This document shows positions 2,853 to 35,135 of a stretch of DNA of 64,000 bases, piece by piece. Position 1 is the first letter of the stretch; every line of letters starts with the position of its first letter. Below the pieces are notes generated by a model. It was given only the letters and a program-made list of their open reading frames with translations, searched no databases and was not told where the DNA came from. Made by a program: the position numbers and the translations under genes. This DNA comes from Mytilus edulis (Eukaryota), in NCBI RefSeq assembly GCF_963676685.1, contig NC_092346.1:82708001-82772000 (forward strand), given 5' to 3'.

Positions 2853-4191
2853 ACCTATATGAATGAGAAAATACGGAGATCAAATGATAAAGAAACAGTA
2901 AATATAGATAAATAAAGAATAATGTTTTAGGTTGTTGAACAGCCACTCAAAATATTAATAAAACAATATTTTTATTCTAGCATTCATAAATAATATATTT
3001 TTTTTTTTGGTATCAATTTTTCAATTTACCTCTTTCCTTGTGAATAAAAAATTATCTTTAGAATTAAATTCAATATACAATATTTGATAAATATATCAAA
3101 TGTCAAAAAATGCTATGAGATAGTCTATTGAAAAATAAGTTGAAGGTGCTGGTAAGTCAACCTCACTGTCAGAAGTCATTAGTTTTAAGACCAATGGTTA
3201 TTATTCTACCATATACAAATCAACATGAAAGAAACTATGTTTAATATCCATTTTTATCTTCAACCCAAATAATATTTCATAATCAGCTTACACAGAATAT
3301 TACATTTCAGACAATTTATGTATTTCACAAAAATGAAAAAAAAAAACATGCTGAGGAAAAATAAAAATCATACAAGTCACAAAATATAAGATAAATTGGC
3401 ATATGAAAATAGCAATGAAGAGTCATCTCAACTTGAAATAATTGGCAAGATAAATCAAACTTATTAACAAATCTCATTGGCATATTCTACATTATATTCA
3501 CTTTAGAAAAAAATAGACAATATCTTAATCAATTGTTTGATCAAATCTATTATAACATAACCAATTGGTGGAAAAACATACAATTTGTATATCAAGAAAC
3601 ACACATTACACATTTGTATTAAAATTAACTATCATTGATTTAAACTTTTATTGACCATAATACAATAACATATAATTTACAAGGACAAAAATAATTCAAG
3701 AATTCATGGCTTGTTAGGATTTCTAAATTTTCCGTAAAATCCTCTACCTTGATGCATGGACAAAACAATTGGGCTACATTTTTGTAACTTTTCAAATGAT
3801 AAAAACATTGCTGCCTTTCATGAATATAAAATTTATTATTTTATTCATTCTTTCATTCTTTCCTTTTCACACATGTCTAAGTTCTCTTTCAAACATACTT
3901 TGAGTTCAACAGACATTCATACATACATCTTGACAATTTATAGTAAAACACTAATTTCTACAGTCCAAAACTCTTGAGGAACAAAAAAAAATGTAATATT
4001 CCATAGAACACTCAAATAAAGGGCTATACCTAGGACAACATGAAATGACCACAGCAGCTAGCAAATACAATAAAAAAAATTAATAGTGACTTAATCATCA
4101 TGAATATTGAGCCTTGGGGCAAGCTGATATTCTAGCTGATGAAGTAAGTGAAAAAAAAAACATTTTTATTTTTATAAATCATTGGTCATTT

Positions 4192-4342
4192 AAGGAATGA
4201 CTGTAACATTTTTTCTGTCTATAAAGAAATAACATAAAAAATTTGGTGTACACTGAATAATGCGTGCAGCGAGTTATTTAACAGTGTGCACCACAGTTTT
4301 TATGTTATTTCGAATAGACAGAAAAAATATTAGTCATTTCTT
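4192..4342. repeat. ~150-bp imperfect palindrome (core of an interspersed element extending to ~4485)
   Basis: Left arm AATGACT..ATTTTTTCTGTCTAT..GAAATAACATAAAAA..TGGTGTACACTG mirrored by CAGTGTGCACCA..TTTTTATGTTATTTC..ATAGACAGAAAAAATAT.AGTCATT. Confidence 0.75.
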
Positions 4343-5487
4343 GTAATTAAATTCCATTTTAAACCGTAGAAAACCATGAAAAACCGTTGATGACGTCACA
4401 GTCACATGACTAAATTATGTCTATGGGCTGATAACAAAATAACATCTGCCAATCAGAAGACGCGTTACATCCAAAACTAAATTATTACTTCATGATTTGG
4501 TGTGGTTTTGAATATGAGACTACATGAAATAGCTGCCAAAACTGTTTTGGAGAGTTTAAAGCATTGTTAAAATTGTTTGGTTGAATCAATGAAGATGCAT
4601 ACTTTTCATTGTTAAATTGACATGGACTGACATGAAGATGTAAAGATGTTGCATTGTTATGTGACATTATTACTTGATATTTTCCTGTATAACTTCCTAT
4701 CCTTGATCTAACAATCTAATAAGGAAGTAGGATCAAAGTGAAAATGTATAAATTGCAGATAGTTTTTCTCTTCCTTATTTACATGAAATGTATTTTTATA
4801 AATAGCTTTTTATTTGATGAAAATTGAATAAAAAAAAACAACATATTACAGACCTTGTGACAATCTGTAATTCTAGCTGCTTTGGTAGTGTTCCCGTATG
4901 TTCTAAGTAAGAGTTACAATTGCAAGAATTGGAATTTATTCATAGACTTTAAAGAAACTAAATCTTTTATCAACAGGTAATAAAAACATTTACATGTTTT
5001 TTGTTTATAATTATTTTTTTTTAGTTTGTAACTAAAGTTGGAATTCTTAAAATCAATTTGGTCATATATTTTTGTCCATAAAGACTGCATCAAATTTATA
5101 AATGATTGCACAACTTGGTATAAGAGTTATTAAATAAAACAAAAGTCTATAGATTTCAACAAAATCATTTGCTAGCATTTGAAATTGTTACACTGGCTTT
5201 ATGAATTATTACAATTTACATTTATTCCAATACAAGTTTTAAAACTTTTAGTGAACTGTCTTTTATTGCAAATAAAAAGAACATTATTCAACTATTCTTC
5301 TTAAAAAAATTCACATCTACGAATCCAAAGAAGTCATTCCAATAGTCCTCTATTACAGTTCTCAGAAATTCAAGTATATATCAATATGTAGATTAATGCA
5401 TACAAAAACTGGAAAGAAAACATTTTACAACTCATGCATTCTTTGATCACCATTCATACAATTAAAATCACAATATTGAAACATACA

Positions 5488-5656
5488 TCAAATACTTTGC
5501 AAACAAAATATGGCTTCATGTAAAATAAGTCCAATGCTTTTTAATAAACACTGTATTTGGCTGTAGTCATTAGTTACAGTTGCTAATGGTAACAAGTTTT
5601 TAATGGAAGACGGAAGTTCCTCTGTATTACTTTCTTTTAAAATAGAGTAATGAGAT
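5488..5656 (-). CDS. M28B-like gene last coding exon
   Basis: ctttacag|(R)SHYSILKESNTEELPSSIKNLLPLATVTNDYSQIQCLLKSIGLILHEAIFCLQSI*; phase 2 matches exon 11; candidate minus-strand AATAAA at 5262-5267 and 5221-5226. Confidence 0.82.
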
Positions 5657-8600
5657 CTGTAAAGAAACAAAACAACATTTTAAGTTTCAATTTTAAACGT
5701 ATTTCATCAACTACCTAATACTTACTGTGCATTCAAGCAATGTGCTAGTTCTTTATATGTGAGAGGTAACAATGAATGATACAAGCTATGTTTCATGCTT
5801 ATAATTTGACTGCACAAATCTGTTTATGAACTATCTTTTTTCTGAAAATATCTTCATAGGAAAAAATTAATTAATGAAAACAATATAATATGGTTTTTGC
5901 TCTTATCTTACTATTGTTTCATTTTATTTACCTACTGGCTTTAGATTTTTAAGTTTAATATTCATCAAAATTAATTGAGATATTTTCTGGATGTATTAGT
6001 TATTTCTTGTTTCATTTGGCTGCTGTGCTTTAACATTTACCTCACATCTCCTTTTATTCATTTTCATACTGAGTCACATTATCCCCATGGTTGTAAGAAT
6101 ACAGAGCAGAAAACTATATACAGGTTCTTTGATGTCGTTTGAACAGACTGAATTCATTTATTCAAAATAATCCTTAAAATAAACAGTGAATGACTGGGAA
6201 AGACTTAACAGTATGAAAATGCTTTGATTATATATGAACTTTGATATTTTATACTCTTTCTATTTTCATATACAGAGAATGTGTTGATTGACCTATAGTT
6301 TTCAATACAGAAAAATACTTTTAGATCTATGGAAAAAAAAAACCTTTATAGTAAGGTCAGGTTTACATTTCTCTTTCATGCAAGTTTTTTTTACCATTTT
6401 TATTACTGTACCAAATAACTAAGACTTTTAAGAAAGTGAATTAGTTCAATTTGATTCTCATGGTCCGAGAACACAATTATTTTGTAGTGCATTTCTTTTA
6501 GAACATAAATAAAAATTAAAAAAATCCCACTTGCGCTTTCTCAAAGAAACTTTTACAGTGTGTTGTACTACTTTTGGGACAAATTATATCAAAATTATAG
6601 AAAACTTCATCGTCTCTAACTCAAAATATTGACAAATTTATGTTTAGGGCGTCTTGAAATCTTTTGACAGCTTCTGAAGTGCTAATTTTCAATCTTTTTC
6701 AGGTGGACCAAATCACTACTTTCCTTTAAAATTCTGGACCCAAATTTTTTTACAATGTAATTTCACCCCCCTACTTGCAATTTGAGGCATTAAACATGGA
6801 GAAATAAATTTGGAAGGGGTATAAAAATTAATGGCAAGTAACCCACTGTCAACACTAGGGACTATATTTGTGAACAACGAAAATCAAGGGACGACAATTG
6901 TGGTCTGGGACCTCATGTGTATATATGAATCAGTAAACTCATCATATCATAGATGCCAGGATTAAATTTTGTATTTACCCCAGACATGCATTTCGTCTAC
7001 AAAAGACTTATCAGTGATGCTCAATTCCTAAAAAGTTAAAAGGGCCAAATAAAGTACAAAGTTGAAGAACATTTGAGGACCAAATCTGATCTTAGAAATA
7101 GAGTTATCTTTCTTAGTAGGTTTATTTGTCATGTCCTAGGAAGTGTTGTGTATTGATTACAAATTATGATTTAAAGAAACCAGAGTCATATATGACCCAA
7201 AACTAATCATTCTACAAAATCACTGTAACTAAAAAGAAAAAAAAGGCAACTAAAATAAACTGGTATAAAATCTAGAAAAGCTATTCATAAAATTATAACC
7301 AAAAATTATAACCAAATATCAGTTCAATATTCTTAAAGAAGGTTGATAATGCGGGTAATAAAATTACATGGCTTCACAATCTTTGGTGATTCTTCAACTG
7401 GAAACCAATTTCAATATATGCACTTAATTATTCATCTATCAAAATATGAGTTCTTCAATATTATTGAATTAATTACCTGTATTTATTTGGCATTAATAAA
7501 ATTCTCTGTAATTTCATTATTGCATCATTAATTCTTCTCACTGCTAAACCATCCTTGGATTTTAAAAGTTGTGGAATGTATTCGGTAAATGTCTTTCCTG
7601 CATTCTTCAATTCAGTCACCTTTTCTACTATAATATCTGAAAAGGTTTATTATCATTAATTGGAATTTAGTTTATTTGATTAGTTTTATACTATGCACAC
7701 ACAAGAAAACCAGCATAGCCATCAATTAGAGGGCAACTCAGTATTAAAATAAACTTATAAAAGTTCTGGATCAGCCACTGTACAAGAACTAGAACATAAC
7801 GTAAAAAATTACCAGAAGTTTGAAGGATTGAGTCTTATAACTCTTGAAAGACAAGTCGATAAGAAATTTTCAAAGAAAGTTTACTTTCTCATTGCAACAG
7901 TTGGCCAATGTTTCAAGTAAATCAATCTGAGCAAATTCAAATATACAGCTTTTTTATTATCTTAAATCTGACAATTAACATTCTGTAACTATAGAAAACC
8001 ACATCAGAAAATTATGAAAATAAAAAAGAAGCTTCCTTTTATTAATACCAACAAGCACAGCATACTTTATAGTGTATGATATGTGAAAATTGTATAAATC
8101 TGACGTTAAAAGTTCCATAACTCTAAAACAAAAAGTAAACCATTTCTTCAAAATTAAAATTATAAAGGAGTCTTTTTTCCACCATTTCAAATATTTCATG
8201 CAATTTTCATGTTTTTAAACAAACCATTTTTGTATTTTTGTTTGACATGTGAACTGACAGACAAACAATGGTTAACAATAATACATACCAGCTATGATGA
8301 GCATATAAAATAGTATACATAAAGTGTTTATTATTGCAAAAGAATAATCAATCAAATAGATCTATACAATTTAAAAGAAATGACTGAAAAGTTCATTTAA
8401 AATTTAAAAAATTTCAAAATTCTGTTCACATTATATTAAGAGATTCACTGAATTTGTTTTGGGTTTTTTTTTGTGAAAAAAAATTAGGTTAAAAAAAAGA
8501 AATATACTAAAATTTAAAAGCTTACTGTAATGACTGTGTTGCATAGCAAAACTAAAAAAAAATTAGGGCTCTTTATACATCAATCAAAATCAATTTGATT

Positions 8601-11600
8601 CAAACAGACATTTTTTAAAAACATGTAATTAAACTACTATATTTACCTGTACTTAAAAGTTTTGAACTGCTTTCTTTTATCAACATCACAGTTCTAATTA
8701 TAGCATTATAAACTTTACTAGTAAAGAAGGTTATATTGAATGGAAGAAGTTCCTCATCCAAAAGTCTTAGTGTTACAAGGGAAGCAACTCTTGCTGCTGC
8801 TAGACTGTACATGTGATGATGATCATCGTCTGATGTCTGTGGAAATAACAAATATATTATAATGCATACAATATTACTGCTCGTGAATATAATATCTAGT
8901 AATTCTTTTGGAAAAGTTAAAGTAATACTAAAACAAAATGTAATTCCTTTTTAAAACTAATGACATTCAACCTATATTTAAAACTATTCATCTCATAGTC
9001 ATAAATCTCTTGTTTTCAGTAAATCTTATTGCATGGCAGATAACACATATAGTTAAGTTTTTTATTGTAACTCTAACATTATCTTTCTGAACATTAAGGT
9101 TATTTACCTGAGTAAGGTTATTTGTCTGTGATACAGAAGCATGAAAGACTGGTACCCCAAACTGTTGGATCCTTGTCTCTGTTTTCATACTGTGTAGCAA
9201 ACCATCCCATGTGTTCTCTAATACTAAATTATCGTTATTTGGATCTGGAACCTGTCATGTCAGATAAAAAATAAATTGTACAATTGTGTTCTAGATAAAA
9301 ACATATTGGATCCAAGTTTCACCAAAAATGTCCATTGTTTTTTGGACTGGAAACTTAGACCACATGCATTGACAAGAAGATCTTTTAACCAATGTCTATT
9401 GAAACATTTTACTTATCTGATTTGACTATACAGTTTATTTGAGCCTGCACTCTATGTTTCTTAGACCTTAAATTTGGTAGTAATTCTAACGAATTTGTCA
9501 ATTTTCATGAAAACCTCAACTTTTCGGTTGTAAATATCAATGCTTTAAAAGAAAAGCTACACAAATAAGTTCTAATTCATTTCCTTACATGTCTTTTAAT
9601 CATCCATTTGAAACATTTTTATCTTCAAACAATGGAATTAATATTTGGGGTCAAAAAAGATTGTTACCAAACTTACTCCTTTAAATAGGAGTGCATATTT
9701 TCCTTGTTACTCAGACCAAGAGTATATGTTTCAGTACTGCCATACTTCAAAGCATAATTATGTTTCAGAACTGTCATACTTCAGAGTATATGTTTCAGTA
9801 GTATTGCCATACTTCAGAGTATATGTTTCAGTACTGCCATACTTCAGAGTATATGTTTCAGAACTGTCATACTTCAGAGTATATGTTTCAGTACTGTCAT
9901 ACTTCAGAGTATATGTTTCAGTACTGTCATACTTCAGAGTATATGTTTCAGTACTGTCATACTTCAGAGTATATGTTTCAGAACTGTCATACTTCAGAGT
10001 ATATGTTTCAGAACTGCCATACTTCAGAGAACCAGGGCTCTATAATATGCAATAAAAGGTAAGTTTCTGCACACTGAAGTAAGGTACGTTTTTGATTTAA
10101 AAGGAATGCTCCTTCATTTGAACTTAAAGCCAAACAGCTATGAATGCTTGAAATTGTAGAAATGAATTTAGAAATCAAGGATTGATTGATTGTGGGTTGC
10201 TTAACGTCCTAGAAATCAAGGAGGCTATGAGTTATATTTATTATTTCACAAACACTTCCATACAATGTCTCTTTTTGAAAATTCAGTGTCAACACTTAGT
10301 ACATGCATATACTAGGAATATGCTTACTTTGCAAGACTTTTTTGATTTACTATGTTAAAGTTCTTTTCTATGTATCCAAGCACATTCCACATTGAAATGG
10401 AGAATTTGTCACACATATATCTGATTTACCAGTATGGTATGTGTGACCATGTTTTATCCTTGCTTCCTTACCTCCTTTACCACACTGGTGACAAGATCAG
10501 AGAACATTGAACTTCCTGCTAAGTGTAACCAATGGGATCCATTATTGATCTGTCCAAGGTCAAGGTCAATGTATGCTACAGCTGAGGATTGAGTGGACAT
10601 AGTCTGCATCTATAGAGAATATGAAAGTGTCTTTATGATTGAATACTCTCATTTACATTTTGAATGTGCAGGCATGTCAAATATTTAATTGTATATAATA
10701 CTTTTTATTGGTATGTCAGTATGTTAAGTGTAAAGTTTTAGAGTTACCTAGGATTTTAGTAATTAGAAACATGCTTCAATTATGTTGAAAGTTGTATTAT
10801 GTACCCACAATTTTAAGTTTATAAATGTATAAAGTATTATCATTAGTTTCAAGGAGATGGCTGCTGTTGCAGAAACCCTATTGGACACCAATATACCTCA
10901 ATTATCTCATCAACTTCTAGTAACTACAAATATTGTTCAATCATATTAAAAATTGTACATTGTGACATTTTTACATTTGGTAAACATATAAACATATAAT
11001 TGTGACTTGGATGAAAAGTTGTCTCATTGGCACTCATACCACATCTTATAATATCTATATGTTATATAATTTTAGTTTCAGGGAAATGGGTGTTGTGGCA
11101 GAAGCCCTAATGGACACCTGGTTACCCCAATAATCTCACCAACTTTATATTCTGTATTGATTGCTGATATAAACTGGTCTCTTTACCTTTAGGTACTGAC
11201 TAAAACCCAAATCTGAGATGCCATCATGGTCCCAGGAACAAAATTTCACACTTCTCCATGGAGTCCATCCATTTCCTCTCTGCATGTCTTTAAAACTTCT
11301 GGCTAGCTCTAACAGGTAGCTGGTACCTACTTGTAGATGTGATCTAGAGGCTCCAATCAGGATAAATCTATCTGTAATACATAAATGTTATGAATGAAAA
11401 AAATGTTTTCATCTATAAAGAAATATATAAAAAATAAATTAAATAGCATTAACTATTACTTGTTAATGTCTCAAATATTTAATTCACTGATAGACAATGG
11501 GATCAGTCTGCTCAAGTTGTGTTTGAAATTGTTTCAAGGAAAGTTTTTTAAGGTTATTTCTGATTGAATAAATCTAAAACATTTCCATTTAACTGAGGTT

Positions 11601-14600
11601 TCCATTGAGAAATTGTTTGCATGTATTTATCATGATGATAGTAACTAAGTTTTGTTGTAACAAATTCAAACAAGAATGTGTCCAAAGTACATGGATGCCC
11701 CACTCGCACTATCATTTTCCATGTTCAATGGACCGTGAAATTGGGTAAAAAATCTAATTTGGCATTAAAATTAGAAAGATGACATCATAGGGAACATGTG
11801 TACTAAGTTTCAAGTTGATGTGACTTCAACTTCATCAAAAACTACCTTGACCAAAAACTTTAACCTGAAACTCTCACTTTCATGTTCTATGTTCAGTGGA
11901 CAATGAAATTGGGGTTTAAAGACTAATTGGCTTATAAATTAGACAGATCATACCATAAGCAACAAGTGTACTAAGTTTCAAGTTGATTGGACTTCAGCTT
12001 CATCAAAAACTACCTTGACCAAAAACTTTAACCTGAAGCGGGACAGACGGATGAAACGGAAGGACGCACAGACCAGCAAACATAATGCCCCTCTACTATC
12101 GTAGGTGGGGCATAAAAACACATTCCACAAAATTTGTGACATTGTGTAAAATACTTGGTTATGAAACAAAATTTAGTTATACATGTACAAATAAGAAAAT
12201 ATGGGTGTTATGGTATTTTTTATTGTTTCTGTTCATTCCTAGTTTTTATAGATTCTGGAAAAATTAAAAGCTTGGCAAATTGTATAGAAACCTGCATCTT
12301 GTTACAAGACTGTATGCTGCAAACTGGATGTATTTTGGTTATTATCTTTTGGTTAAATTTGGTCATTTGGTTGCTATCTAATTGATGTTTACCGTTTTAT
12401 AAATATCTATTAATTTGATATTTACCTCTTTCTAAATCTCCCGTTATACTGCCAACCACATTCTTGACACTCTGGGTAATCTGTATATAATTTGACACCA
12501 ATCTTACAGATATATTTCCTGAAAAGATACAGTTATATCTCAATTCATAACACTTGAGACATTGCTTCCTAGCAAAAGATAAGGATAAAATTCCTATTCA
12601 GACTTACATACCCAAGGTTTGTGTGATTCATTATTCCTATTCAGACTTGTGAAGATAAGCTTTGTGTGATTCATTATTCCTATTCAGATTTGTGAAGACA
12701 TGGTTTGTATGATTCATTATTCCTATTCAGACTTGTGAAGATAAGGTTTGTATAATTCATTATTCCTATTCAGACTCATGAAGACAAGCTTTGTATGATT
12801 CATTATTTCTATTCAAGGTTTGGATAACTCATTATTCCTATTCAGACTTGTGAAGATAAGCTTTGTATGATTCATTATTCCTATTCAGACTTTTGAAGAT
12901 AAGGTTGTATGATTCATTATTCCTATTCAGACATGTGAAGACAAGCTTTGTGTGATTCATTATTCCTATTCAGACTTGTGAAGATAAGCCTTGTATGATT
13001 CATTATTCCTATTCAGACTTGTGAAGATAAGGTTGTATGATTCATTATTCCTATTCAGACATGTAAAGACAAGCTTTGTGTGATTCATTATTCCTATTCA
13101 GACTTGTGAAGATAAGCCTTGTATGATTCATTATTCCTCTTCAGACTTGTGAAGAAAAGCTTTATATGATTCATTATTCCTATTCAGACATGTGAAGATA
13201 AGGTTTGTATGATTCATTATCCCTATTCAGACTTGCAAGATAAGGTTTGTATGATTCATTATTCCTATTCAGACATGTGAAGATAAGGATTGTATGATTC
13301 ATTATTCCTATTCAGACTTGTGAAGATTAGGTTTGTATGATTCATTATTCCTATTCAGACATGTGAAGATAAGGTTTGTATGATTCATTATTCCTATTCA
13401 GACATGTGAAGATAAGGTTTGTATGATTCATTATTCCTATTCAGACATGTGAAGATAAGGTTTGTATGATTCATTATTCCTATTCAGACTTGTGAAGATA
13501 AGGTTGTATGATTCATTATTCCTATTCAGACATGTGAAGACAAGCTTTGTGTGATTCATTATTCCTATTCAGACTTGTGAAGATAAGCCTTGTATGATTC
13601 ATTATTCCTCTTCAGACTTGTGAAGAAAAGCTTTATATGATTCATTATTCCTATTCAGACATGTGAAGATAAGGTTTGTATGATTCATTATCCCTATTCA
13701 GACTTGCAAGATAAGGTTTGTATGATTCATTATTCCTATTCAGACATGTGAAGATAAGGATTGTATGATTCATTATTCCTATTCAGACTTGTGAAGATTA
13801 GGTTTGTATGATTCATTATTCCTATTCAGACATGTGAAGATAAGGTTTGTATGATTCATTATTCCTATTCAGACATGTGAAGATAAGGTTTGTATGAGTC
13901 ATTATTCCTATTCAGACTTGTGAAGATAAGGTTTGTATGATTCATTATTCCTATGCAGACTTGTAAAGACATGGTTTGTAAGATTTTTCATTCCTATTCA
14001 GACTTATGAATATAAGGTTTGTATGAGTCCTTATTCCTATTCAGACATGTAAAGATAAGGTTTGAATGATTCATTATTCCTATTCAGACTTGTGAAGATA
14101 AAATTTGTATGTGTCATTATTCCTATTCAGACGTGTAAAGATAAGGTTTTGTGACTCATTATTTCTTTTGAGACTTGTTAGGACAAGGTTTGTATGGTTC
14201 ATTAATCCTATTCAGACTTGTGAAGATAAGGTTTGTATAATTCATTATTCCTATTCAGTCTTGTGACGATATGGCTTGTTTGATTCATTATTCCTATTCA
14301 GTCTTGTGAAGATAAGGTTTGTATGATTCATTATTCCTATTCAGATGTGTGAATACAATGTATGATTCATTATTCTTATTAACCCTTTCACCGATTGCTG
14401 CCCAGACAGAAGCTACTCTGAGACGATGGCTTCCCTGGCTACTATTGCTCAAGTGGGAGATCTTCATAATAAATGTCAATAAAAACTTGTTTGTAGTTAT
14501 TTGTGTATTTATTTCATTCACTAACACCATGTTAACAGTTTTATTCATGTTTTGATAATTTTTTCCTCATAAAATATTCAAATTTTCAAATTTTCGGCAT

Positions 14601-17600
14601 TATCTAGGTGAAATTCTCAAAATTCTGCTCTTTGACCCCAAATCGTAATTTTTTAACCCAAAACGGCAAACTTTTGAAAAATTTTATGAGGCTGTACAAA
14701 TTCCTCACACTGAACGATGTCCATTCCAAGTGTTTTGTACATAAAACGACATTTTATGTCAAAAAAGTATACTAGTTTGGCTTCAATTCTTCCATATTCT
14801 TTCAAAAAAATTGTTCCCTCATTTCAAATTCTCGTAAATTCCGTAAATTTCGTCTGATTTTGACACGGTTTTCAACAAACGGAAGCGCCATGTTTTGACT
14901 TTCATCCAGGTATTCATCAAAGAAAGATAACTCATGTTTGCACTGTTTTGAGCGGGAAACATAAAAGATGTATTCCGATCCCGGTAAAACGGGACTCATC
15001 GTCAGTTGTCTGAAGCGTGAATCCCGGTAAACCGGGACTCATCGGCGAAAGGGTTAAGGAAAGTGAAATCTTGTTAATTATGATTCATTATTTCTACACA
15101 TTTTGGTAAAGACAAATCTTTGTATAGAAGATTTATTTTACAGTACTCATTACTCAAGTAAAAGTGCAGAAAAGTAACAAATATTTTTTTTTTCTTTTGT
15201 TGATATTTTATGCCTACAAAATCAAGCAAACTTTGACTTTTTGTAAATGGCTTGAACATAGTTTTAATTAGCGTTCCATGTTGATAAGCTGAGGTGACTT
15301 TTACATAGTAATGTCAACCAACTACCCCACCACAGTCACTGTAGTCAACAATTGTTAAGTAAACAAACTCACTATTGTGTGTTGAATAATACATCAGTAA
15401 CTGTTCAGAAATATTTCTGGATAACATCTGTACTGGAAATGGATACTGTTGACTTGTATCTATATTTAAAAAAGAATTACATGAGAGTATTACAGAAAGA
15501 CTGATAGCTTAATACCCTTTTTAATTATATTTGGTTGTTTTATTGGTTTGTCTGCATATCTTAGTTTTTTATTTCATTTAGTATATTTTGGGGTATTTAC
15601 CTCTTCAGCATAATTTCTACCTATTAGCATTTAAAATAAAGGAATTGTAATGCATGTATAAAATCAAAAGTTCCTGACAACAGACAAGGCAAATCGGAGT
15701 AAATTCAGAAGTCTAATAACTCAATGTTATTAACAATTAAATAAAATATTACAAAATAAAATTATTTGATTTGATTGTAGAAGAGAATAATCTTGTATAT
15801 GTATACATTAAGAGTGTTGTTGCTGATGGTGTGTTCTTTGTCATTTACAACTTATAACAACTAGAAAACATCCTACACAGATATGTCCTACCACTTATCA
15901 TGACTTTGTTGTAAAAATTTCATTTAATTAAGCTATTTAACAGTCAAGTATGGTCAATACTAGTGTAATCATATTGTCAGTAGACAAAGTTTTCACTACA
16001 TTATTGTCAAGTATGGTCAATACTAGTGTAATCATATTGTCAGTAGACAAAGTTTTCACTACATTATTGCTGTGGCTTCTTTGCCTTTGACTATAGTCTA
16101 AAGTGTATGTAAACTGTTGACTTCCTACCTAGACAGTCAGTGATGTCAGACATTTTTTCTTTCTCTGCATTTTGTATCAATATACCTCTCACACCAAAGG
16201 TTATCCCATTTCTAATCTGTAACAGAACATATATTTTCAAATGTATATTTTTTTCTTTCTTTTGTGTTCCCCTTAAAATTTCTCAATCACTATTACATTT
16301 TGACATGTTTGTTATTTTGACTTTGAGCTGATCATCCTTTGCTCTGGTTCACAATTTTGATTGGAGGTAGAAAATACCAAGTTAAAGTCTTTGGTTTGAC
16401 CTTCGTTGGCATCAACCAAGGCTAGCACAGACACTATATGGCATCAACCAAGGCTAGCACAGACACTATATGGCATCAACCAAGGCTAGCACAGACACTA
16501 TATGGCATCAACCAAGGCTAGCACAGACACTATATGGCATCAACCAAGGCTAGCACAGACACTATATGGCATCAACCAAGGCTAGCACAGACACTATATG
16601 GCATCAACCAAGGCTAGCACAGACACCATATGGCATCAACCAAGGCTAGCACAGACACTATATGGCATCAACCAAGGCTAGCACAGACACTATATGGCAT
16701 CAACCAAGGCTAGCACAGACACTATATGGCATCAACCAAGACTAGCACAGACACTATATGGCATCAACCAAGGCTAGCACAGACACTATATGGCATCAAC
16801 CAAGACTAGCACAGACACTATATGGCATCAACCAAGACTAGCACAGACACTATATGGCATCAACCAAGGCTAGCACAGACACTATATGGCATCAACCAAG
16901 GCTAGCACAGACACTATATGGCATCAACCAAGACTAGCACAGACACTATATGGCATCAACCAAGGCTAGCACAGACACTATATGGCATCAACCAAGGCTA
17001 GCACAGACACTATATGGCATCAACCAAGGCTAGCACAGACACTATATGGCATCAACCAAGACTAGCACAGACACTATATCACAAAACTGCAAAGATCTCA
17101 AAATGAAAGGTTAAATTGATCATGACCTTCTTTTTTATGACCCTTTTGATATCTTCAATTAATACCCCAAAATTTTATTTCCACAAAATGTGTGACGTAA
17201 AAATAAGATTTTCTTTCGTTCATGCACTAGTATTTCTTATTTCATTTTATTAATGTGTAATTCCATATTTTCCCATATAATGTATTTTAAATGACTTTAA
17301 TTCAATGCAGAACAGAATGACTAAATAGAGTTTCACTTATTATGATTCATTCTTATGCTTTTAGTTGACTCACATAACATGTATAGATAACTTTGATGCA
17401 TGAAATTTATAGAAATTATTCACATGTAACGTGTTGTTTTTATTTATTTTTTCAATATATTTGTGCTGAATCATAAAGTATTTAACCTCCATTACCGTTT
17501 GGAGTTTTTTTGTAAGTTAAACTTTTTAACAAAGTTGAATACTGCAAGACAGATAATAGTCTAAATATTACTATCAATTTAATCTTCAGATGTCTCAATT

Positions 17601-20600: not shown

Positions 20601-23600
20601 GATTGTATTTACTTGGACCACAGTTCCGTAGCCAGGAATTTCCAAGGAGGGGTTTAATACATGGAATTGGGAACTCAACTTTAACAGTTACAATTCAACA
20701 GATTGTCGACTTTAACAGTGCTTATTTGTTTTCAAGGGGAGAGAGTGTACAAATCCCCTGACCCCCCCCCCCCCTATTCCTTGCCAAGGTTGTGGACAAC
20801 TAATTTCAAACCTCTTCAAAATTTATCCTTGCATTATTACAATAAAACATTTATGAAAAAATACACAAATGTCCCTTACAAACATAAAAATACTATAACA
20901 TTGGCTATTATCAAGATACATGTGTAAACTTATCATAACTTCTGTGTGTTTATATATACTTTATAAATCATTACCAACATGACCAAGAATGCTTTACATT
21001 CAGAAACACAGATTTTTTTTTTAATTCAACCACTACTGTAGTCAAGCATAAGCGTTAAGTAAATGTACATCAAACAATTTCTATATGAAAATTTAAAAAG
21101 CAAAGGCTACAGGCAAACACAACAGGAAAATGTTCATAAACTTGTGTCATTTCGTTCTCCTAAGGGTTCTTGTAAAATTATTAATATCTGTAGTTTCAGG
21201 CATTAAATAATGATCTAGTATTTGTTTAAAATAAAATCTGGTTCTAAAAACATGTATCAATGACATAAGATTGTTTTGTCAGGTTCAAAATTGATTTAAA
21301 TGGTATTATGAAAACAAGTCAATCCAAGGATTAAAATCTTGTTTAGGATCATTTATATGGCAAAAATCTTCAATCTTCATACTAAACCCCACAAAACTAG
21401 ATTTAACCCTATTTCATTTTTAATTCTACACAAAATTAGCCTATTTTCTCTGTATACAATATACTGTTTCTTTTGAAATAAAGAAGTTGTTAGTAGTTCC
21501 AGTATATGATAATTCCTGCTATTTTGTGTTATGTTTCAAAGATTTGTTATAATAAAATTTGATGCTGCTGCACATTTTGTGTAAATAGAATGTTTTGGGG
21601 TTTTTTTTATTTGCATTGGTTGTTTGGTAGTCATGATGTAAATTATTTTTAGGGGTCCAAACTCATTTTTGCACCTGTCCCAAGTCAGGAGCCTCTGGCC
21701 TTTGTTAGTCTTGTATAATTTTTAATTTTAGTTTCTTGTGTATAATTCGGAGTTTAGTATGACGTCCATTATCACTGAACTGGTATACATTTTTGGGTAG
21801 GGGCCAACTGAAGCACACCTCCAGGTGGGAAGATTCTCGCTGCATTGACCACCCCTTGTTGGCCTTCGGCTGTTGTCTGCTCTATGGTTGGGTTGTTGTC
21901 TCTTTGACACATTCCCCATTTCCATTCTCTATTTTATCATATATGGATAGATTAGAATGCTATTAAAGCTGGAGAAAGGAAAACAATTTGATCAATGAAA
22001 AGAATCCTAATTACATATATATATAAATTCTCATATGATTACCCTGTAGTTGACTAAAAACTGAACAAATATAATAAGTTAAAATGACTTTCATGTAATA
22101 CATTGTGTCGATTATTTTGATTATTGAAAGCATAATCTGTTCTGGTTATAACTTTATTGTGGGTAAAATAGTGTCTTAATGAAAGTTGCCTGGCTAATTA
22201 GCCTGTTAGTACAAATTGTCAATGATACATACCTTTTCCTTTATGGATACTTCTCCTTGTCGGATCATCAACACCTTGCCCTGGAGAGACATAGATCTAT
22301 TCTTCCTCACTAAGTCAATACTTCTACCATAATCACCATATACTAGCTCTCCCTGGATGTGGAAAAATTAGCAAAACAGTTAGCAATATATAGACAATAA
22401 GGTGTTAAGAGACTTCTCGCCTTTATGTAATTTTGATAGTGTTATGCAAATGTGTTTTTTTTAAGGGCAACAATTTAAAATGCAAACTATGCCACAGTTT
22501 CAAAGACAATGGAGCAAGACTTAGGTGCAGATAAAAATAATATCCATGGAATAGAGATGTGCCAGTGTGAATATAATACCAAATAAACCTGTATTATGGT
22601 TCCCCTTAAACTAAACTAATCACAAACTTGAAAACAATATTGTTGCTGCATGCCCTTTCTTTAGGTGGGGGGTGGGGGATTTCGTTGATAATATAGGGAA
22701 TCATTGAGACATGACTGTAGCGGGAACCCTCTTATAAAAAGTTCTGGATCCGCCACTGTATATACAATTTAACAGCAGCCTGATGGAACCAATAACCAAG
22801 GTGTCTTAATATGTCAATGATTGACAGATTGTTGTTACTTGCCTTATGTCCCCTGAAGTATTCCATGGCCATGAATTCAGGACAAGAACAAATAAAACAT
22901 CATTACAATAAGTATGTTTCCAAAGGTAGGTCAACTAATATGAAGGGAGGAAATTGGACTGCAGTGGAAAACAAGGGATATTGGAAAGGAGCAGAAATTT
23001 GTCCTTGCAACATCCCACTCATGTTTTATGTGAAGTCTAAGTTAGTTTCAGTGAGTGCATCTAATTTTACAGTACCGGTACATGAGATGTGAATTAATGA
23101 GATATGGGTATATACCAATGTTACAGCAGCCTAATGGAACAAATAACCAAAAGATATATTAAGGTCAACACACAGTCTTAAACAAAGTGTCTATACAATT
23201 TGTTAAGTCTAATAAAATTGGGAGTAAGCTTAACAGAAACTATCCAAAACAATTGAGGCAGTGAGCCATAAGAACCACAAATATTAGAATATCTTCTTAA
23301 CATAAATGAGACCGTGATATGCAGAAGTAACTTTATAATATCTTTGGCTTCATAAATGTATATAATGTTAATGGCAGTACTCCTGCATGTCCTGAGTCAT
23401 GAATAACTTCTAGAAAAATATATGCATTAGCTAAAAGATAAGAACTTTTAAGGTCTCCCATACACAACAGATATATGGTAAAGTGAAGTCAACCATGGAC
23501 TACTATTGAGAAACATGAAAATCAATGCATTTTTATAAACATATAGGTCCCCCACATCACTTAGTTTGATTTCTTCATAATATACTTGACATTTCCATGT

Positions 23601-26600: not shown

Positions 26601-29600
26601 ATTTGTATATTATTCATTATTAGAGTAAATAAACAGCTTATTACAAATAAACTGATCTATATCCACACAGATTAGCATTTAAGTACCAATTAAGACACAG
26701 TTTAATGTTGGTATTTGTGTACCACAGTTAAAATTAATCTGAATAAATCGTTCTAGATAAAAATGTTTTTTTAAATTGAAATTTCAAAGTCAGTCACTGA
26801 ATTAAAAAAATTTATTGTTCATTAGAGATTAACATTTGTCCACTTAGGGTTGACCTACACCTGACCATATGATAATATCTTTATTATGACAGCGGTCTAG
26901 CCTACCTCTGAACACCTGTAGGATCAAAGGATATACCTCAGGCATTCTACAGGTTAATTACAGGTACAATAAAACAGGAATCAAAAATCAGTTACCACCT
27001 GTATGTGAATTAATGTATAATAGTTTTGATATGTAAACATGGTAAAAGACCACTTTCTCTTAATTTTAAGTACCTGAGATAATTGAAATAAATAGACAGG
27101 GCAGTTGTGAAATAATCATTATTTGTTTATTGAATTAACTTTAGATGTGTTGTAAATTAATTGAATGTTTATTGCCTAAGGTATATCTTTTCATCAAAAC
27201 AAACTGGCCACATTATACTAGTATAATGGCCCAATAAACAGACCAGGAGACAATGGTGAAAAAATGTAGGATTTCTACGCATTAGAAATCAAGCTATTTG
27301 TACATATATGTTTCTTGTACGTTGTCAAGTTCAAAAACTTCATATTTTGAAAATCGTGACTTATGCATGGGATGTATATTTATACAAACATTGGTCAAGA
27401 CTTTTATCTACTGGTATCAACTATTTTACTGTTTTTTCTGTAATACCTCAACTTCATTTGGTGAAAGCCTTGTAACATCTCCTCCTCTCCCATCCTCAAT
27501 TATTTCTTCTACTTTATTGGTGACCTTGGATTTACTCAGGGTCACATTCTTCACCACCCGGCCGGAGGAATTAATGACTACAAGCTGATTTGGTCTATCT
27601 GGATCGGGGTATGTTACCACTACATCATATTCCTGGACTTCTACTCTGTCCAATCCATATGTCTGTAGTTCTTTCTTCACATATTCTGTTTGTCTTACAT
27701 CTTTCAGTAACTTCAAATCTCTGTAATAGTGAATAGAAACAGGTTTAATGTACTTTGGCAAGGAATGACAATTTGCATAGATATTTCTCAGGGGGTCAGG
27801 TTTTTGAATATTAACCCCTGCATTAAGTTCCTTCAAAGATTGTGTTTGTTTTTTCAATGAACACAATTAAATACTCACCTATATACAAATAACCATACCT
27901 ACAATGAACACAATTAAATCCTCACCTATATTCAAATAACCATACCTACAATGAACAGTTTTCTTGCAAGGGTTCTCATCTCAAAAATTTGTCAATGACA
28001 CATACCAAATGAGTAACAACTAAAGGTCACTGTATGGCCTTCAACAATGAGCAAAGCTCATGTTCTCTTCCTGAATATGCATTTAATTACTGCTGGACAT
28101 TAAACATCATCATCATCAAATTATGTCTCAGTTTTCCTTCCGAAGGTCAGTGGTTCTCTCTAAGTTCTCCTGCTTCCTCTACCAATTAAACTGACCGCCT
28201 CAAAATACACTGTAATCAAGGATGCTGTAAGTTATATGGTGTTTACAACCAACAATCAATCATCCATCTCTTTTGGGTTTTCTGGATTCTCAAAAACTGC
28301 TGGCTAGTAGTTTCTAAACATCCATTTCACCATAACATTATTTTTCAAAGTTTATTGACAAAAATATATTCAAAAATTTTATCATCTTTGAGCACCCTTC
28401 ATCCCTTCTTTAAATCAATTTGAGATCATGAATTTTGATTTTATAAAGTGCTGAAAAATTTCAATAAATTTAAAGTAACAAAAGAAATGTATTAAACCAG
28501 AACATTATCTTAGACTTAAGTTTGTAATTTTTTTTTAATTTCACAAATAAGCACAGAATGACACTATTCTGTGTAACAAAAACAACAAATTAGTCAATGC
28601 ACTCAGATCATAGCAGATATATATCAACATGATCAACATCATAATACCGAGTACATGGTATTTTCTGTACCAAATAAATTGAAGAAAATTGCTTGATGTA
28701 GTAATGATTATCTGAAAATTAAATTTATCACTGGTGCTAGTTACATTATCATACAAATATTTAATTGTTGTTGTATCAGAATATAATTTTGATAAAAAAA
28801 AAAAGATTAAATTTTATAATTTTGACAGGCAATTTATGTCAAACTTGATAAATTTTGAAATTATTTTCGAATTCTTTACAATTAAATCTTATAAAAAAAA
28901 TATACTCTTATAAAAATTAAAATTTAATTTATGTGATTCAAAATGAAAACAAAGTTTATATTTTATCAATATATATACATAATTTATTTTTAAATTCAAC
29001 CATACAAAAATTGATAATTTTATTTTAAATCAACTCAAGTATTGTCAAGTAAATATCATTATAATTTCTCACCAAGGCAAAATTTTATAATATTTTAATA
29101 AGGTTCAATTTATAATTTGAAAAGATCAAACAATTATTTCTTAAGAAATATTAATGTATAGAGAAGAACTATCTCAAAGCATGAGACATCAACCCAGTTA
29201 TTAAATCCTATACAGATAATTTGTATATTATTGTTGTCACTGTCCAATATAATAAGCGATTATTTCTTAACCTACAATTTTATCACAAAGTATCACAAAG
29301 AAGAACTGGTTTGTTGTAGAAAATCACCTTTAATTTTCCAAAAAATGCAAGTAATAAAAATCAAAGCATTAATACAAATATCACTGGGTTCATTATAGAG
29401 TAAATATACCATATTTGTCCTGTGGGTGTTACACATACATTAAACCACAGAAGGTACCTTTAATCCTTTGCATAAACTTTTAAAGGGGTGATCTCAAAGA
29501 AGTAAATGTATTATTCAAACATTGTTAAATCAAGTCAAGTTTACACATTCTTTTCCTAATCCTATTAGACCAAGATTTATATATCTTAATTAAATAACAT

Positions 29601-32600: not shown

Positions 32601-35135
32601 TGGTGAATGGTATGAGATAATAATTTTCTAATTCATACTGATTGCCTTCATTTAACTCATTGTTGTTAAATTCATTTCTCAATAAAAATTAGTTTCATTA
32701 TTCACTGATCTATGAGACAGTTTATATATATACTGACACATGAAAGAAATCATAAATCCTATTCAGAATTAGGATTGATTATTTCGTCTTGAAAATTGAC
32801 AAGTGTAATAACTAATATTTAAACAATTAAAATATTATCATGTAATCTGAGGCATGTAAGGATTGTTTAAAGTTTTCAAATTTTGACAGTTAAAATCCAT
32901 TTAGCAATTTTACTGTACATGCTGAATAATGTATAACATGTATAAGTTAGAGCTCTGACAAGACTGATAAACCAATTCTGAATCTTGGAAGGCTTACTTT
33001 AAGAGGGGCGTTAAGGAGGAGTATCTGCGAAGAAGAACGAGAAATAAAATTTTCATTTCACTATGAACAAACAATTAAAAATTTCTTGCACGTTGATTTT
33101 TTTACAGATTTCAGGAAACATGGTGAATAATGAACCTTTTTCATGGCTGTGTGTGAAATAAAAATGGCATAACATGTTGCACGAAAATAACCCTTTACCA
33201 CCCTCATTTAAGCTGGAGCAAGTCATATGCATTTTTTACAAAGTTGTAATGAAATTTTTAGACTTACTTTAATGTCTGATTATGCTATAGATTCTGTTCT
33301 GTAAATCTTGAAATTTTTTGCATTTCGAGATTTGTAATAAATTTTCTATAATATAATCTTGAAATGAAAATACAATATCAAAATCTATCCTTCAATTACA
33401 TTCATTGTAAGATAAATAGATATAAGAAGATGAGGTATGAGTGCCATTGAGACAACTCTTCATCCAAGTCACAATTTACAAAAGTAAACCATTGTAGGTA
33501 AAAAAAAAAACTGCCTTCAACACAGAGCCTTGACTCACATCAAACAGCAAACTATAAAGGGCCCCAAAATATTACTAGTGTAAAGCCATTTAAACGGGAA
33601 AACCAATGCACATGTACAAATTTATCTATAATTATAAATGGCATATAATATACATTGTACATGTATCTATGAATCATATACATGTACAATGTACAACATT
33701 TATCCACAATTGTATAAAAAAAAATATTTAAAGTTGTTTTAGACTCTTATGTTTTTTTCTTATTAACTACATGTACAAAAAATGTACAATGTATATATTG
33801 CTATTTTGATTTTTCAATCTAAAGTTAGTCGCCTTTTTAAACTTTTTTTTCATCAAACTTTTCTTAGACTTGTACAAATGTATCTTCTCAGTACATACAT
33901 GTCACACAATTAAATACAGTGATCCACCTATTTATTTAGAAAATTTTTGCTGCATTTTTAATAAATATGTGCCATTTGAAGTATATAAAATATGGATTAA
34001 AATGCCTCTGGCCTTTGTTAGTCCGGTATGATTTTTAATTTTAGTTTCTTGTGTACAATTCGGAGTCTAGTATGCTGTCCATTTATGGCGCAGGAATAGT
34101 GTCACAATGGCGTTTTTATGCCATTGCATAAATGAATTATGCGATGGCATAAATCTATTTATTAAATAATTGTATTTCTGGACTTGCATTATTATTTATG
34201 CGATTGCATAAATCTATTTATGCGATGGTATAAATCTATTTATGCGAACGCAAAAATATCTTTACATTTACGCAACTATGGCGCAGGAATAGTGTCACAA
34301 TGGCATTTTTATGCATTGTGACACTATTACCATGCAATATCCATTATCACTGAACTAGTATGCACATTTGTTAAGCCAGCTGAAGGACGCCTCCTGGTTC
34401 AGGAGTTTCTCGCTACATTGAAGGCCCATTGGTGGCCTTCGGCTGTTGTCTGCTCTATGGTCAGGTTGTTGTCGCTTTGACACATTCCCCATTTCCATTC
34501 TCAATTTTATTAAAAATTGTAAACACAAGTTAGAAAAATATCCATAATAATGTTTGAGGACCTGTTTGGCAGATCTAGAGTTAAAATTTACAAAAGATGT
34601 ATCTTAAATTTGAAGCTGGGTCCATAATAAATATTAGCAGACATATGTCTCTGATATTAGTATTACTTAAATAGAATACTGTATCATATACTATACATGT
34701 ATATACAAATCATCCAATGAAGTCACTTATTTGGGATAGTTATTTTCTTTTTAAGGGATTGTGTTGAATGATTTGCTTTTTCATCTTCAAATATTCAAAA
34801 ACTCACCTTGATATTTTTCGAACATTGTCATTTGAAATAAAATACATGATGTTTTCATGTACAGAATGGAGCATGTGAGTGTCAATTTTATCCCTTCTTT
34901 TTCCAAAACTGCTTTCATCTTCATGAGATTCTTTCAAAAAATATCCAACCATTAATCCAACTAAAAACATAACACTTAAGCTCAAAATAATCAAAGAAAA
35001 TGCCCATGTGCTAAAAGTTCTTTTAAGTTTCTTTTGGGCTGGAGTTTCAGGTGTATAAATTCTCCCTACATCATTAGGATCATCCGACACAGTACTCCAA
35101 CTTCTGTATTTTGTAAACGAACTTGCACTCGCCAT
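5488..35135 (-). CDS. M28B family (GCPII/NAALADase/transferrin receptor-like) type II membrane protein, probably catalytically inactive; 12 coding exons, ~658 aa
   Basis: Exons 35135-34807, 27720-27447, 22352-22233, 16216-16129, 15459-15373, 12518-12426, 11371-11187, 10609-10472, 9251-9108, 8836-8647, 7636-7477, 5656-5488. All have GT-AG boundaries and compatible phases, totalling 1977 nt. Motifs are collinear with GCPII/TfR: GLDRVEVQEYDVVVTYPD, GELVYGDYGR, NVVGSITG..DRFILIG, GWTPWRSVKFCSWD, AVAYIDLD, LLPFN, RRINDAIMKLQR. Confidence 0.9.
6462..6912. mobile_element. Non-autonomous DNA transposon with 4-bp TSD
   Basis: TCAT|GGTCCGAGAACACAATT ... AATTGTGGTCTGGGACC|TCAT. Confidence 0.7.
6977..7020 (-). 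ncRNA. Decayed minimal hammerhead ribozyme motif (G8->A)
   Basis: Minus strand GCAUCA CUGAUAA GUCU-UUUGU-AGAC GAAA UGCAUG UC UGGGGU; lies in the same repeat family as the other copies (about 6932-7085). Confidence 0.7.
7477..7636 (-). CDS. M28B-like gene exon 11 (helical dimerisation domain)
   Basis: cttttcag|(D)IIVEKVTELKNAGKTFTEYIPQLLKSKDGLAVRRINDAIMKLQRILLMPNKY-AG|gtaatt; aligns with LRMMNDQLMFLERAF. Confidence 0.88.
8647..8836 (-). CDS. M28B-like gene exon 10
   Basis: ttccacag|TSDDDHHHMYSLAAARVASLVTLRLLDEELLPFNITFFTSKVYNAI...KLLST-G|gtaaat; aligns with [25 protein letters not shown]. Confidence 0.88.
9108..9251 (-). CDS. M28B-like gene exon 9
   Basis: catgacag|VPDPNNDNLVLENTWDGLLHSMKTETRIQQFGVPVFHASVSQTNNLTQ|gtaaat; overlaps track ORF 8988..9200. 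Confidence 0.82.
9719..10030. repeat. 30-bp minisatellite (~10 units), intron 8 of M28B gene
   Basis: Unit TCAGAGTATATGTTTCAG(T/A)ACTG(T/C)CATACT; explains track ORFs 9645..10055 and 9823..10062. Confidence 0.95.
10472..10609 (-). CDS. M28B-like gene exon 8
   Basis: ctctatag|MQTMSTQSSAVAYIDLDLGQINNGSHWLHLAGSSMFSDLVTSVVKE|gtaagg; aligns with VAYINAD...PLMYSLVHNLTKE. Confidence 0.88.
11187..11371 (-). CDS. M28B-like gene exon 7 (degenerate active-site exon)
   Basis: gtattacag|(D)RFILIGASRSHLQVGTSYLLELARSFKDMQRGNGWTPWRSVKFCSWDHDGISDLGFSQYLK|gtaaag. Confidence 0.92.
11669..12118 (+). mobile_element. HINE/pearl-like (Helentron-associated) non-autonomous element
   Basis: AACAAG start, two internal ~175-bp repeats (…AAACTACCTTGACCAAAAACTTTAACCTGAA), GAC(A/G) microsatellite-like tract, terminal hairpin ATGCCCC…GGGGCAT followed by an A-run. 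Confidence 0.7.
12426..12518 (-). CDS. M28B-like gene exon 6
   Basis: cttttcag|(R)NISVRLVSNYIQITQSVKNVVGSITGDLER-G|gtaaa; aligns with [27 protein letters not shown]. Confidence 0.88.
12590..14378. repeat. 43-bp tandem array (~41 units), intron 5 of M28B gene
   Basis: Unit TGATTCATTATTCCTATTCAGAC(T/A)TGTGAAGATAAGGTTTGTA. Confidence 0.97.
14383..15053. mobile_element. piggyBac-like non-autonomous element
   Basis: TTAA|CCCTTTCACCGAT ... ATCGGCGAAAGGG|TTAA (12/13 TIR match); subterminal direct repeat ATCCCGGTAAA.CGGGACTCATCG near the right end. Confidence 0.85.
15373..15459 (-). CDS. M28B-like gene exon 5
   Basis: aaatatag|(D)TSQQYPFPVQMLSRNISEQLLMYYSTHN-A|gtgagt; aligns with PSIPVHPIGYYDAQKLL; phase 1-1. 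Confidence 0.8.
15943..16069. repeat. Tandem duplication, 63 bp x2
   Basis: GTCAAGTATGGTCAATACTAGTG...CACTACATTATT repeated. Confidence 0.9.
16129..16216 (-). CDS. M28B-like gene exon 4
   Basis: ctgttacag|IRNGITFGVRGILIQNAEKEKMSDITDCL-G|gtagga; aligns with VKNAQLAGAKGVILYSDP. Confidence 0.8.
16408..17079. repeat. Near-perfect 32-bp minisatellite (~21 units)
   Basis: GGCATCAACCAAG(G/A)CTAGCACAGACACTATAT; no spacers. Confidence 0.97.
18254..18350. repeat. Tandem duplication, 48 bp x2
   Basis: TGATAAAAAATTCTTGTGATATATATAAATCAGATTTGTGAATAAGAA twice. Confidence 0.9.
21668..21937 (+). mobile_element. SINE-like interspersed repeat (other copies 24020-24340, 34005-34510)
   Basis: Shared CCTGTCCCAAGTCAGGAGCCTCTGGCCTTTGTTAGTC ... 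TTTGACACATTCCCCATTTCCATTCTC in three copies. Confidence 0.75.
22233..22352 (-). CDS. M28B-like gene exon 3 (PA/apical domain)
   Basis: acatccag|GELVYGDYGRSIDLVRKNRSMSLQGKVLMIRQGEVSIKEK|gtatgt; aligns with GCPII GDLVYVNYAR...SGKIVIARYGKVFRGNK. Not in the ORF track. Confidence 0.9.
25250..26482. repeat. Compound degenerate minisatellite (48-58-bp units)
   Basis: GAGTATGTCAGTAAATGAAGTACTATGTCAAC units (25250-25960) grading into AGTATGGCAGTACATTGCAGT(A/T)CTATGTCAATCTTTCAGTCAGCAGG units (26200-26482). Confidence 0.9.
27447..27720 (-). CDS. M28B-like gene exon 2
   Basis: Acceptor ctattacag|, phase matches exon 1 (AG|A = Arg); encodes DLKLLK...TYGLDRVEVQEYDVVVTYPDPDRPNQLVVINSSG...NEVE; donor GAG|gtatta. 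Confidence 0.88.
29937..30078. mobile_element. Short MITE (CAGTGGC…GCCCCTG family; end remnants near 7765-7780 and 22744-22758)
   Basis: CAGTGGCAGATA ... TATCTGCCCCTG imperfect TIRs with poly-G/poly-C runs. Confidence 0.6.
34084..34339. mobile_element. Non-autonomous DNA transposon (IS3EU-like termini) inserted into a SINE-like repeat
   Basis: TCCATT|TATGGCGCAGGAATAGTGTCACAATG ... CATTGTGACACTATTACCATGCAATA|TCCATT; 6-bp TSD; the uninterrupted host sequence is visible near 21757. Confidence 0.75.
34807..35135 (-). CDS. M28B-like gene exon 1: cytoplasmic tail, signal-anchor TM helix, stalk
   Basis: ATG at 35135; hydrophobic helix WAFSLIILSLSVMFLVGLMVGYFL (aa 44-67) preceded by basic KKLKR; donor AG|gtgagt, phase 2. 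Confidence 0.88.

Follow-up and report, generated by a model that had tools for sequence, protein, structure and literature searches.

Transferrin receptors bind their partners through apical and helical surfaces. TfR1 and TfR2 are classed in MEROPS as non-peptidase homologues of family M28B, and the existence of non-enzymatic members is textbook knowledge, as far as the available parts of two sources go (PMC9768917, PMC10794815). The same parts describe the enzymes of the family, i.e., GCPII (FOLH1, PSMA), GCPIII (NAALAD2), NAALADase L and the GCP2 proteins of trematodes and C. elegans, as retaining H377, D387, E424, E425, D453 and H553 (ligand numbering of GCPII as in PMC10794815), unlike the mussel protein presented here. 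Human NAALADL2 has been linked to the aggressiveness of prostate cancer by a mechanism called elusive, and its overexpression changes matrix binding (PMC8115686, in the portion available). In molluscs, ferritin uptake is described without an agreed receptor in an extract of PMC10094261, and the receptor for mollusc ferritin is an open question in the accessible part of a chiton preprint (10.64898/2026.10.23.761458). A TfR-like role has been proposed for razor clam NAALAD2 in the available part of PMC12896564; this protein, ScNAALAD2, has a membrane segment at residues 7-29 and a match of 43.6% to amphioxus, and going by its description there it appears to be of the ordinary NAALAD2 type rather than a member of the clade discussed below.

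The window, the whole 64-kb stretch of Mytilus DNA analysed, holds an M28B gene whose product we read, with somewhat better than even confidence, as an intact protein of GCPII fold belonging to a mollusc clade, a probable orthologue of NAALADL2 and likely a non-catalytic binding or adhesion receptor. A splice search guided by annotated Mytilus proteins placed 12 coding exons on the minus strand, from 35135 to 5488, and a genome search found one copy of the gene; its upstream neighbour within the window is an LDLa-repeat gene. As originally predicted, all 12 exons are open and in phase: the coding sequence of 1977 nt has a single terminal stop, 11 of 11 introns are GT-AG, and the product has 658 amino acids. 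The features of the locus are the following.

34807..35135, minus strand: coding exon 1 (329 nt, amino acids 1-110), predicted cytoplasmic tail, single transmembrane helix and stalk (hydropathy; model helix 43-76)
35097..35108, minus strand: cytoplasmic motif Y10-R-S-W13, the sole YxxPhi-like match in the tail (alignment of orthologs)
34935..35003, minus strand: predicted transmembrane helix, about amino acids 45-67 (KD19 maximum 2.58 at amino acid 45)
27447..27720, minus strand: coding exon 2 (274 nt, phase 2 to 0; matches annotated Mytilus proteins)
22233..22352, minus strand: coding exon 3, apical/PA domain (120 nt, phase 0 to 0; PF02225 E 1.6e-4, below cut-off)
16129..16216, minus strand: coding exon 4, apical loop (N257, Ca site) deleted or remodelled (88 nt; alignments, read depth)
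15373..15459, minus strand: coding exon 5 (87 nt, phase 1 to 1; splice model, reads)
12426..12518, minus strand: coding exon 6 (93 nt, phase 1 to 1; splice model, reads)
11187..11371, minus strand: coding exon 7, dismantled zinc site (185 nt, AG/GT ends, phase 1 to 0; reads)
11348-11346 and 11225-11220, minus strand, within exon 7: codons of S339 and of D380/G381 (alignments to goat FOLH1)
10472..10609, minus strand: coding exon 8, with the D409 codon at 10561-10559 (138 nt; joint 7-8 in reads)
9108..9251, minus strand: coding exon 9, last core beta strand (473-479), YHS loop deleted (144 nt; model, alignments)
8647..8836, minus strand: coding exon 10, histidine pair H492/H493 at 8821-8816 (190 nt; ortholog alignment)
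7477..7636, minus strand: coding exon 11, helical/dimerisation domain (160 nt; PF04253 E 0.001, below cut-off; predicted interface 578-595)
5488..5656, minus strand: coding exon 12 (169 nt including the stop; joint 11-12 in a contig)

The exon 7 reading of the original prediction agrees with the translation of the minus strand from 11371 to 11187, which is identical to parts of the annotated proteins of M. edulis, M. galloprovincialis and M. trossulus; the annotated M. coruscus protein is 97% identical over this stretch. Across the 658 amino acids, 19 positions differ from the annotated M. galloprovincialis protein P0002 and 31 from the annotated protein of M. trossulus. The RNA-read evidence was taken from exon 4 onwards. 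In one stranded raw run, 48 reads span the joint of exons 6 and 7 and 40 that of exons 7 and 8 (among the joints listed), with the read direction on the exons as expected; a contig from another run contains both of these joints and also 11-12, and in a second raw run exon depth reaches only about 1x or less. RNA thus confirms the exon 6-7-8 joints, and no extra exon beside exon 7 that could restore the ligands occurs among the joints listed. A decaying pseudogene would fit the long terminal branch of the protein (1.2-1.3 in two careful trees) and its Pfam scores below the cut-offs, but is hardly credible for a gene with an open 12-exon frame, spliced RNA and mostly synonymous differences (five of six exonic ones among the 40 rows of read differences listed), and with orthologs that are full-length in Mytilus (three named species) and in each of three classes of molluscs. 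The earlier view that the gene is no pseudogene therefore stands, and its product is an intact, transcribed and constrained M28B membrane protein.

The window protein was aligned to the GCPII/TfR (M28B) family by HHalign with a probability of 100, all three M28B domains were matched in Pfam, each below its cut-off, and GCPII is the best PDB match by whole-protein sequence (E 1e-34). The predicted structure (pTM 0.70, mean pLDDT 73) shows a protease-like, an apical (PA) and a helical domain arranged as in GCPII, as judged from the model, structure comparison and HHalign. It superposes on GCPII with Z 37.8 (rmsd 3.9 over 532 residues) and nearly level with this on TfR1 (Z 36.4); the three-domain fold is shared with TfR1 and TfR2 at Z 32.5-36.4. 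The product is predicted to be a single-pass membrane protein with an N-terminal anchor behind a short tail, for which the family suggests a type II orientation. In the tail, the [FY]RSW motif is retained in bivalve (including Mya) and abalone orthologs and may be a sorting or phosphorylation signal. A dimer model, which had been among the checks proposed, was computed for residues 300-658: the homodimer scored 0.49 against 0.11 for the best control, with contacts agreeing in at least 83% and pLDDT of at least 76, a mark reached in calibration by 21 of 30 solved pairs, by 0 of 23 single chains and by 7 of 16 in animals. A homodimer through the helical domain is thus predicted, with a score that may reflect memory of solved TfR/GCPII dimers.

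With goat FOLH1 (P0027) as the residue reference, profile-profile and L-INS-i alignments agree and bear out the losses read from exon 7. H377 is replaced by S339, D387 is gone via a 7-residue gap, and E424/E425 have become D380/G381, while D453 persists as D409 in exon 8 and is, as had been claimed, the only one of the five zinc ligands retained. The Y552/H553 (YHS) loop is deleted. A histidine proposed as the H553 equivalent, H475, came from pairwise phmmer (domain E 0.99) and is placed by the two alignments in a core beta strand (model strand 473-479), at the position of R534; a first MAFFT alignment that also had a histidine at H553 was judged misaligned. With H475 so placed, the statement that H553 has no counterpart in exon 9 is upheld. 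None of the seven substrate residues (R210, N257, R534, R536, Y552, K699, Y700) is retained. TfR1 and TfR2 have likewise lost zinc ligands and kept D453; the Ca ligands E433/E436 are present in TfR but missing from the window protein. We regard the protein as very probably non-catalytic and functional.

Of 1.84 billion representatives searched, 885 matched, and the best 150 of these were listed; besides Mytilus fragments, the top listed matches come from Solemya, Pinctada, Saccostrea, Mactra, Arion, Haliotis, Physella and Biomphalaria, and further members were found in scallop, Mya and Argonauta. The clade of the window gene hence spans bivalves, gastropods and cephalopods, with a support of 1.0 in FastTree (run without six short rows and two near-copies), 100 in a quick 43-row tree and 100/99 in both careful trees (25 and 27 rows). 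What had been presented as a striking single case is instead a pan-mollusc orthogroup, and databases have given some of its members automatic names, 'transferrin receptor protein 1/2-like' or NAALAD-like. None of the 14 non-Mytilus members examined has H377, E424 or H553, D387 is retained in 9, E425 in 8 and D453 in 7 of them, gastropod members have S in place of D453, and the general base is retained in no clade member. Since the site is dead in all 14, the enzyme was dead before bivalves, gastropods and cephalopods split. The D387 deletion, counted earlier as part of the dismantling, is present in Mytilus, but with D kept in most relatives it would be a later extra, mostly of the Mytilus lineage. 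The clade also has its own deletions, in the apical and YHS loops.

Two other features stand out in the ortholog alignment: D407 is invariant, and the pair H492/H493 is clade-specific and nearly invariant, being present in the cephalopod members too. Together with D409, and with D387/E425 in most relatives, these residues could form a new single-metal site for metal binding or sensing, or for an unusual hydrolysis. Their conservation and the retention of D387 and E425 in 9 and 8 of 14 others argue for such a remodelled site; however, Mytilus is without D387 and E425, the gastropods have lost D453 and a general base is missing throughout, and we consider this reading very improbable. Between Mytilus species, variable sites are concentrated in the apical and helical domains (58 of 303, vs 14 of 245 in the protease domain, p 3e-6), a faster change that may be only relaxed constraint.

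Zinc-site loss recurs in M28B, and finding one more case would by itself be no surprise to specialists. Among 140 aligned M28B proteins covering the site, 55 are without one or more of the six key residues, a count that is biased upward by the query and may include some misaligned rows. The same genome holds a second degenerate M28B gene (on C13) with an ordinary intron pattern, and a dead tick protein (P0035) nests with an intact relative (100/100). Like the window clade, the hemichordate (P0024/P0061), copepod (P0139/P0111), tick and second Mytilus proteins have lost the catalytic glutamate and some ligands, but they form separate well-supported clades with other substitutions. The pan-mollusc pseudopeptidase is an addition to this already known class of dead M28B proteins.

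Independent losses such as those in tick and in the second Mytilus gene favour a pseudopeptidase confined to molluscs, whose site was lost independently of the vertebrate dead M28B proteins and whose likeness to NAALADL2 or TfR is convergent; the clade's own loop deletions point the same way. The intron pattern argues against it. Four M28B paralogs in the Mytilus genome retain all six key residues, and all four carry introns at goat positions 307, 340, 409, about 511 and 657, none of which is found in the window gene; an intron at 458, present in three of the four, is likewise absent. Exon 7 is uninterrupted where all four active paralogs carry an intron, and a phase-1 intron near goat 338, the one upstream of exon 6, is unique to the window gene and has no counterpart in the four. 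The gene models of the active paralogs are partly rough, about 10 of the 11 window-gene introns lie at or near positions the active paralogs use, and intron loss can be convergent.

The trees were examined in the same respect. In AU tests on the full alignment (LG+F+G4, 5000 replicates), all five constraints that made active mollusc paralogs, P0042 or FOLH1 the sister group were rejected, with p <0.001 for oyster or abalone active paralogs or FOLH1. When the active-site columns were removed and a mixture model was used, four of five sistership constraints were rejected (p 0.005-0.018 for oyster/abalone paralogs and FOLH1), and the active P0042 group as sister had p 0.063. Union with TfR had p 0.63 on the full alignment and 0.24 without these columns, and union with the hemichordate pair or the copepod proteins was never rejected. 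Under a simulated active-sister history, the likelihood gap of 58.6 was reached in 0 of 18 simulations (maximum 20.7); a clade of all long branches arose in 3 of 18. A careful 25-row tree has a starred all-dead clade including TfR (98/97), which collapses to a polytomy in the 27-row careful tree with more taxa; no non-mollusc protein joins the window clade with support in the latter, as the mollusc-only loss would have it. Cephalopod members aside, the best outside match of the clade profile is a hemichordate protein with 340 bits, which in line with that loss barely exceeds an intact enzyme (by 4.6 bits). The best genome match of the hemichordate protein is exon 7 (E 0.003, next 0.009), too weak to count. 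The trees do not decide the origin of the clade, and their deep branches are unstable. The maximum likelihood phylogeny proposed earlier thus secures the clade itself, and leaves deep branches that are unstable and contain no recognised NAALADL2. The original idea of a probably independent origin from a peptidase is less well supported, sistership with active paralogs and FOLH1 being rejected and ancestry shared with TfR or the hemichordate proteins not. With the Atlas and exon data that follow, which favour NAALADL2, a loss confined to molluscs is possible but unlikely.

In the ESM Atlas, ranks 1-3 for the window protein are NAALADL2-type clusters (0.97, 210-212 of 256 features), where clusters have at least 50 members and are chordate-heavy and a feature match is a lead, not an alignment; as a control, a dead copepod M28B protein was assigned to TfR1 (0.98). 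NAALADL2, like the predicted window protein, is an M28B member of type II topology whose zinc site has degenerated. In the human gene, coding exons 3-14 presumably follow the phase series of mussel exons 2-12 at all 11 introns, with one extra intron, and exons of 274, 120 and 93 nt would match the mussel sizes, a comparison drawn up with the mussel sizes already known. We further take NAALADL2 to lack the same introns as the window gene, whereas FOLH1 and TFRC presumably keep them. It would differ from the mussel protein in its length of 795 amino acids, in two extra introns and in keeping the apical loop that is deleted in the mollusc clade. One of 13 borders, c.43/44, is confirmed in the available part of PMC6393660 and lies outside the 11 shared introns. 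No NAALADL2 sequence was recognised in the homolog searches, among the PDB matches or among the best 150 of 885 representatives (31 of the 150 named), and a LisH search for the NAALADL2 neighbours TBL1XR1 and NLGN1 gave no signal anywhere, its own controls being silent too. In the literature outside subscription journals, no paper was found that ties NAALADL2 to molluscs, nor one on the transferrin receptor and invertebrate evolution. The likeness to NAALADL2 comes from Atlas features and the presumed exon table, the trees containing no recognised NAALADL2. Since these two lines favour NAALADL2, a TfR-like protein of independent derivation is not the preferred reading, and the window gene is probably an orthologue of vertebrate NAALADL2.

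The resemblance to the transferrin receptor seen in the original prediction holds for exon 7 by itself, where TfR1 is the first match (E 4e-5), and fails for the whole protein, which has GCPII first by sequence, a tie of GCPII and TfR by fold and NAALADL2 by Atlas; the TfR label taken from exon 7 was accordingly set aside. A counterpart of the transferrin receptor, i.e., an endocytic receptor that takes in haemolymph ferritin or some other carrier of iron, would also agree with the AU values for union with TfR, with the variable apical and helical surfaces and with further traits shared by TfR1 and TfR2: these form a dimer as predicted here, and both have a short tail with an aromatic motif, [FY]RSW itself resembling YxxPhi. 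The mollusc ferritin receptor, moreover, is still open in what is available of the chiton preprint (10.64898/2026.10.23.761458). The Atlas, in contrast, separates the window protein from TfR, yet puts the copepod protein with TfR1, and a supported pair of the window clade with TfR1/TfR2 was not recovered in the careful trees. No Rfam IRE was found in window positions 1-6000 and no IRE core pattern in the likely UTRs, including the region below 5488; across the window this pattern has 19 matches vs 19.3 expected. The TFRC gene presumably keeps introns that are missing here and so has a different intron set, and a genome search with gecko TfR2, a weak one, did not pick the window locus. We therefore hold the iron-carrier receptor to be improbable.

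Under the preferred reading, that of a non-catalytic NAALADL2-type protein, the protease-like core would serve as a retained scaffold, and an extracellular partner would bind to a surface presented by the apical and helical domains, which change faster, as in TfR. The product would then be a protein-binding surface receptor, a role we rate as only a little better than an even bet. A matrix or haemolymph protein is a candidate partner, and the sole pointer to a matrix or adhesion partner is the NAALADL2 overexpression data in the available portion of PMC8115686. The conserved tail motif would link binding to sorting or signalling.

If the gene is an orthologue of NAALADL2, the pseudoenzyme would already have existed in the ancestor of bilaterians, and its non-catalytic role would be an ancient one maintained by selection. 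The clam study of iron handling (PMC12896564, by its available part) appears to concern an ordinary NAALAD2-type paralog, and the mollusc clade described here is a ready candidate for the mollusc ferritin receptor sought in the chiton preprint (10.64898/2026.10.23.761458, as available). It is a long shot that the clade is the missing receptor for mollusc haemolymph ferritin and shares with NAALADL2, and perhaps with TfR, one non-catalytic M28B receptor that preceded the split of protostomes and deuterostomes. If true, receptor function would long predate the vertebrate TfR, and the function of human NAALADL2 could be approached in molluscs as tractable animals.

Nineteen amino acid differences separate the window allele from P0002, an annotated M. 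galloprovincialis protein, and 14 of these lie in the helical domain. The sites of note are the stretch at 7636-7614, in this domain, and exon 12. In the former, which encodes residues 551-557, five of seven successive residues of the window allele match neither M. galloprovincialis nor M. trossulus. This divergence possibly reflects a divergent haplotype or positive selection.

The window also contains the following features:

51194-61614 (minus strand): an LDL-receptor class A repeat in each of three exons (E ~3-9e-9)
11668-12118, 10998-11047, 6500-7050 and 14400-15060: intronic interspersed repeats
9761-10039 and 54306-54886: non-coding tandem repeats whose translation gives repetitive open frames

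The class A exons belong to a gene upstream of the M28B gene on the same strand. The intronic repeats draw very deep RNA reads that originate at other loci, and the Pfam matches to the tandem repeat at 9761-10039 are weak and under the cut-off.

Elsewhere in the genome, at least four M28B paralogs are catalytically intact, one further copy is partial, and contig C3 carries, in addition to the window gene, three of the M28B loci listed here:

C3, 73.89 Mb: M28B locus
C3, 73.98 Mb: M28B locus, partial copy
C3, 76.46 Mb: M28B locus
C7, 16.14 Mb: M28B locus
C10, 25.72 Mb: M28B locus

The same genome also holds a second degenerate M28B gene, on G000:C13 at ~18,397,000-18,414,000 (loci L023 and L024), which retains H377, D387 and D453, has S/K in place of E424/E425 and shows an altered YHS motif. 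It possesses the ordinary intron near position 409 (goat FOLH1 numbering), and towards the 5' end it encodes a tandemly repeated peptide. Its nearest relatives are the homologous proteins P0144, P0103 and P0142, which form a separate, supported clade.

Dead M28B proteins were also encountered in copepods (P0139 from Caligus, and P0111). Their nearest ESM Atlas clusters are TfR1 (0.98); one quick tree set them beside TfR (SH-aLRT 93), and the careful trees give them no supported placement there. They are possible invertebrate TfR-like proteins. Among hemichordates, the M28B proteins P0024 (Saccoglossus) and P0061 (Glandiceps) retain H377, D387 and D453, have lost E424 and carry H in place of E425, and they are candidates for a deuterostome link to the mollusc clade.
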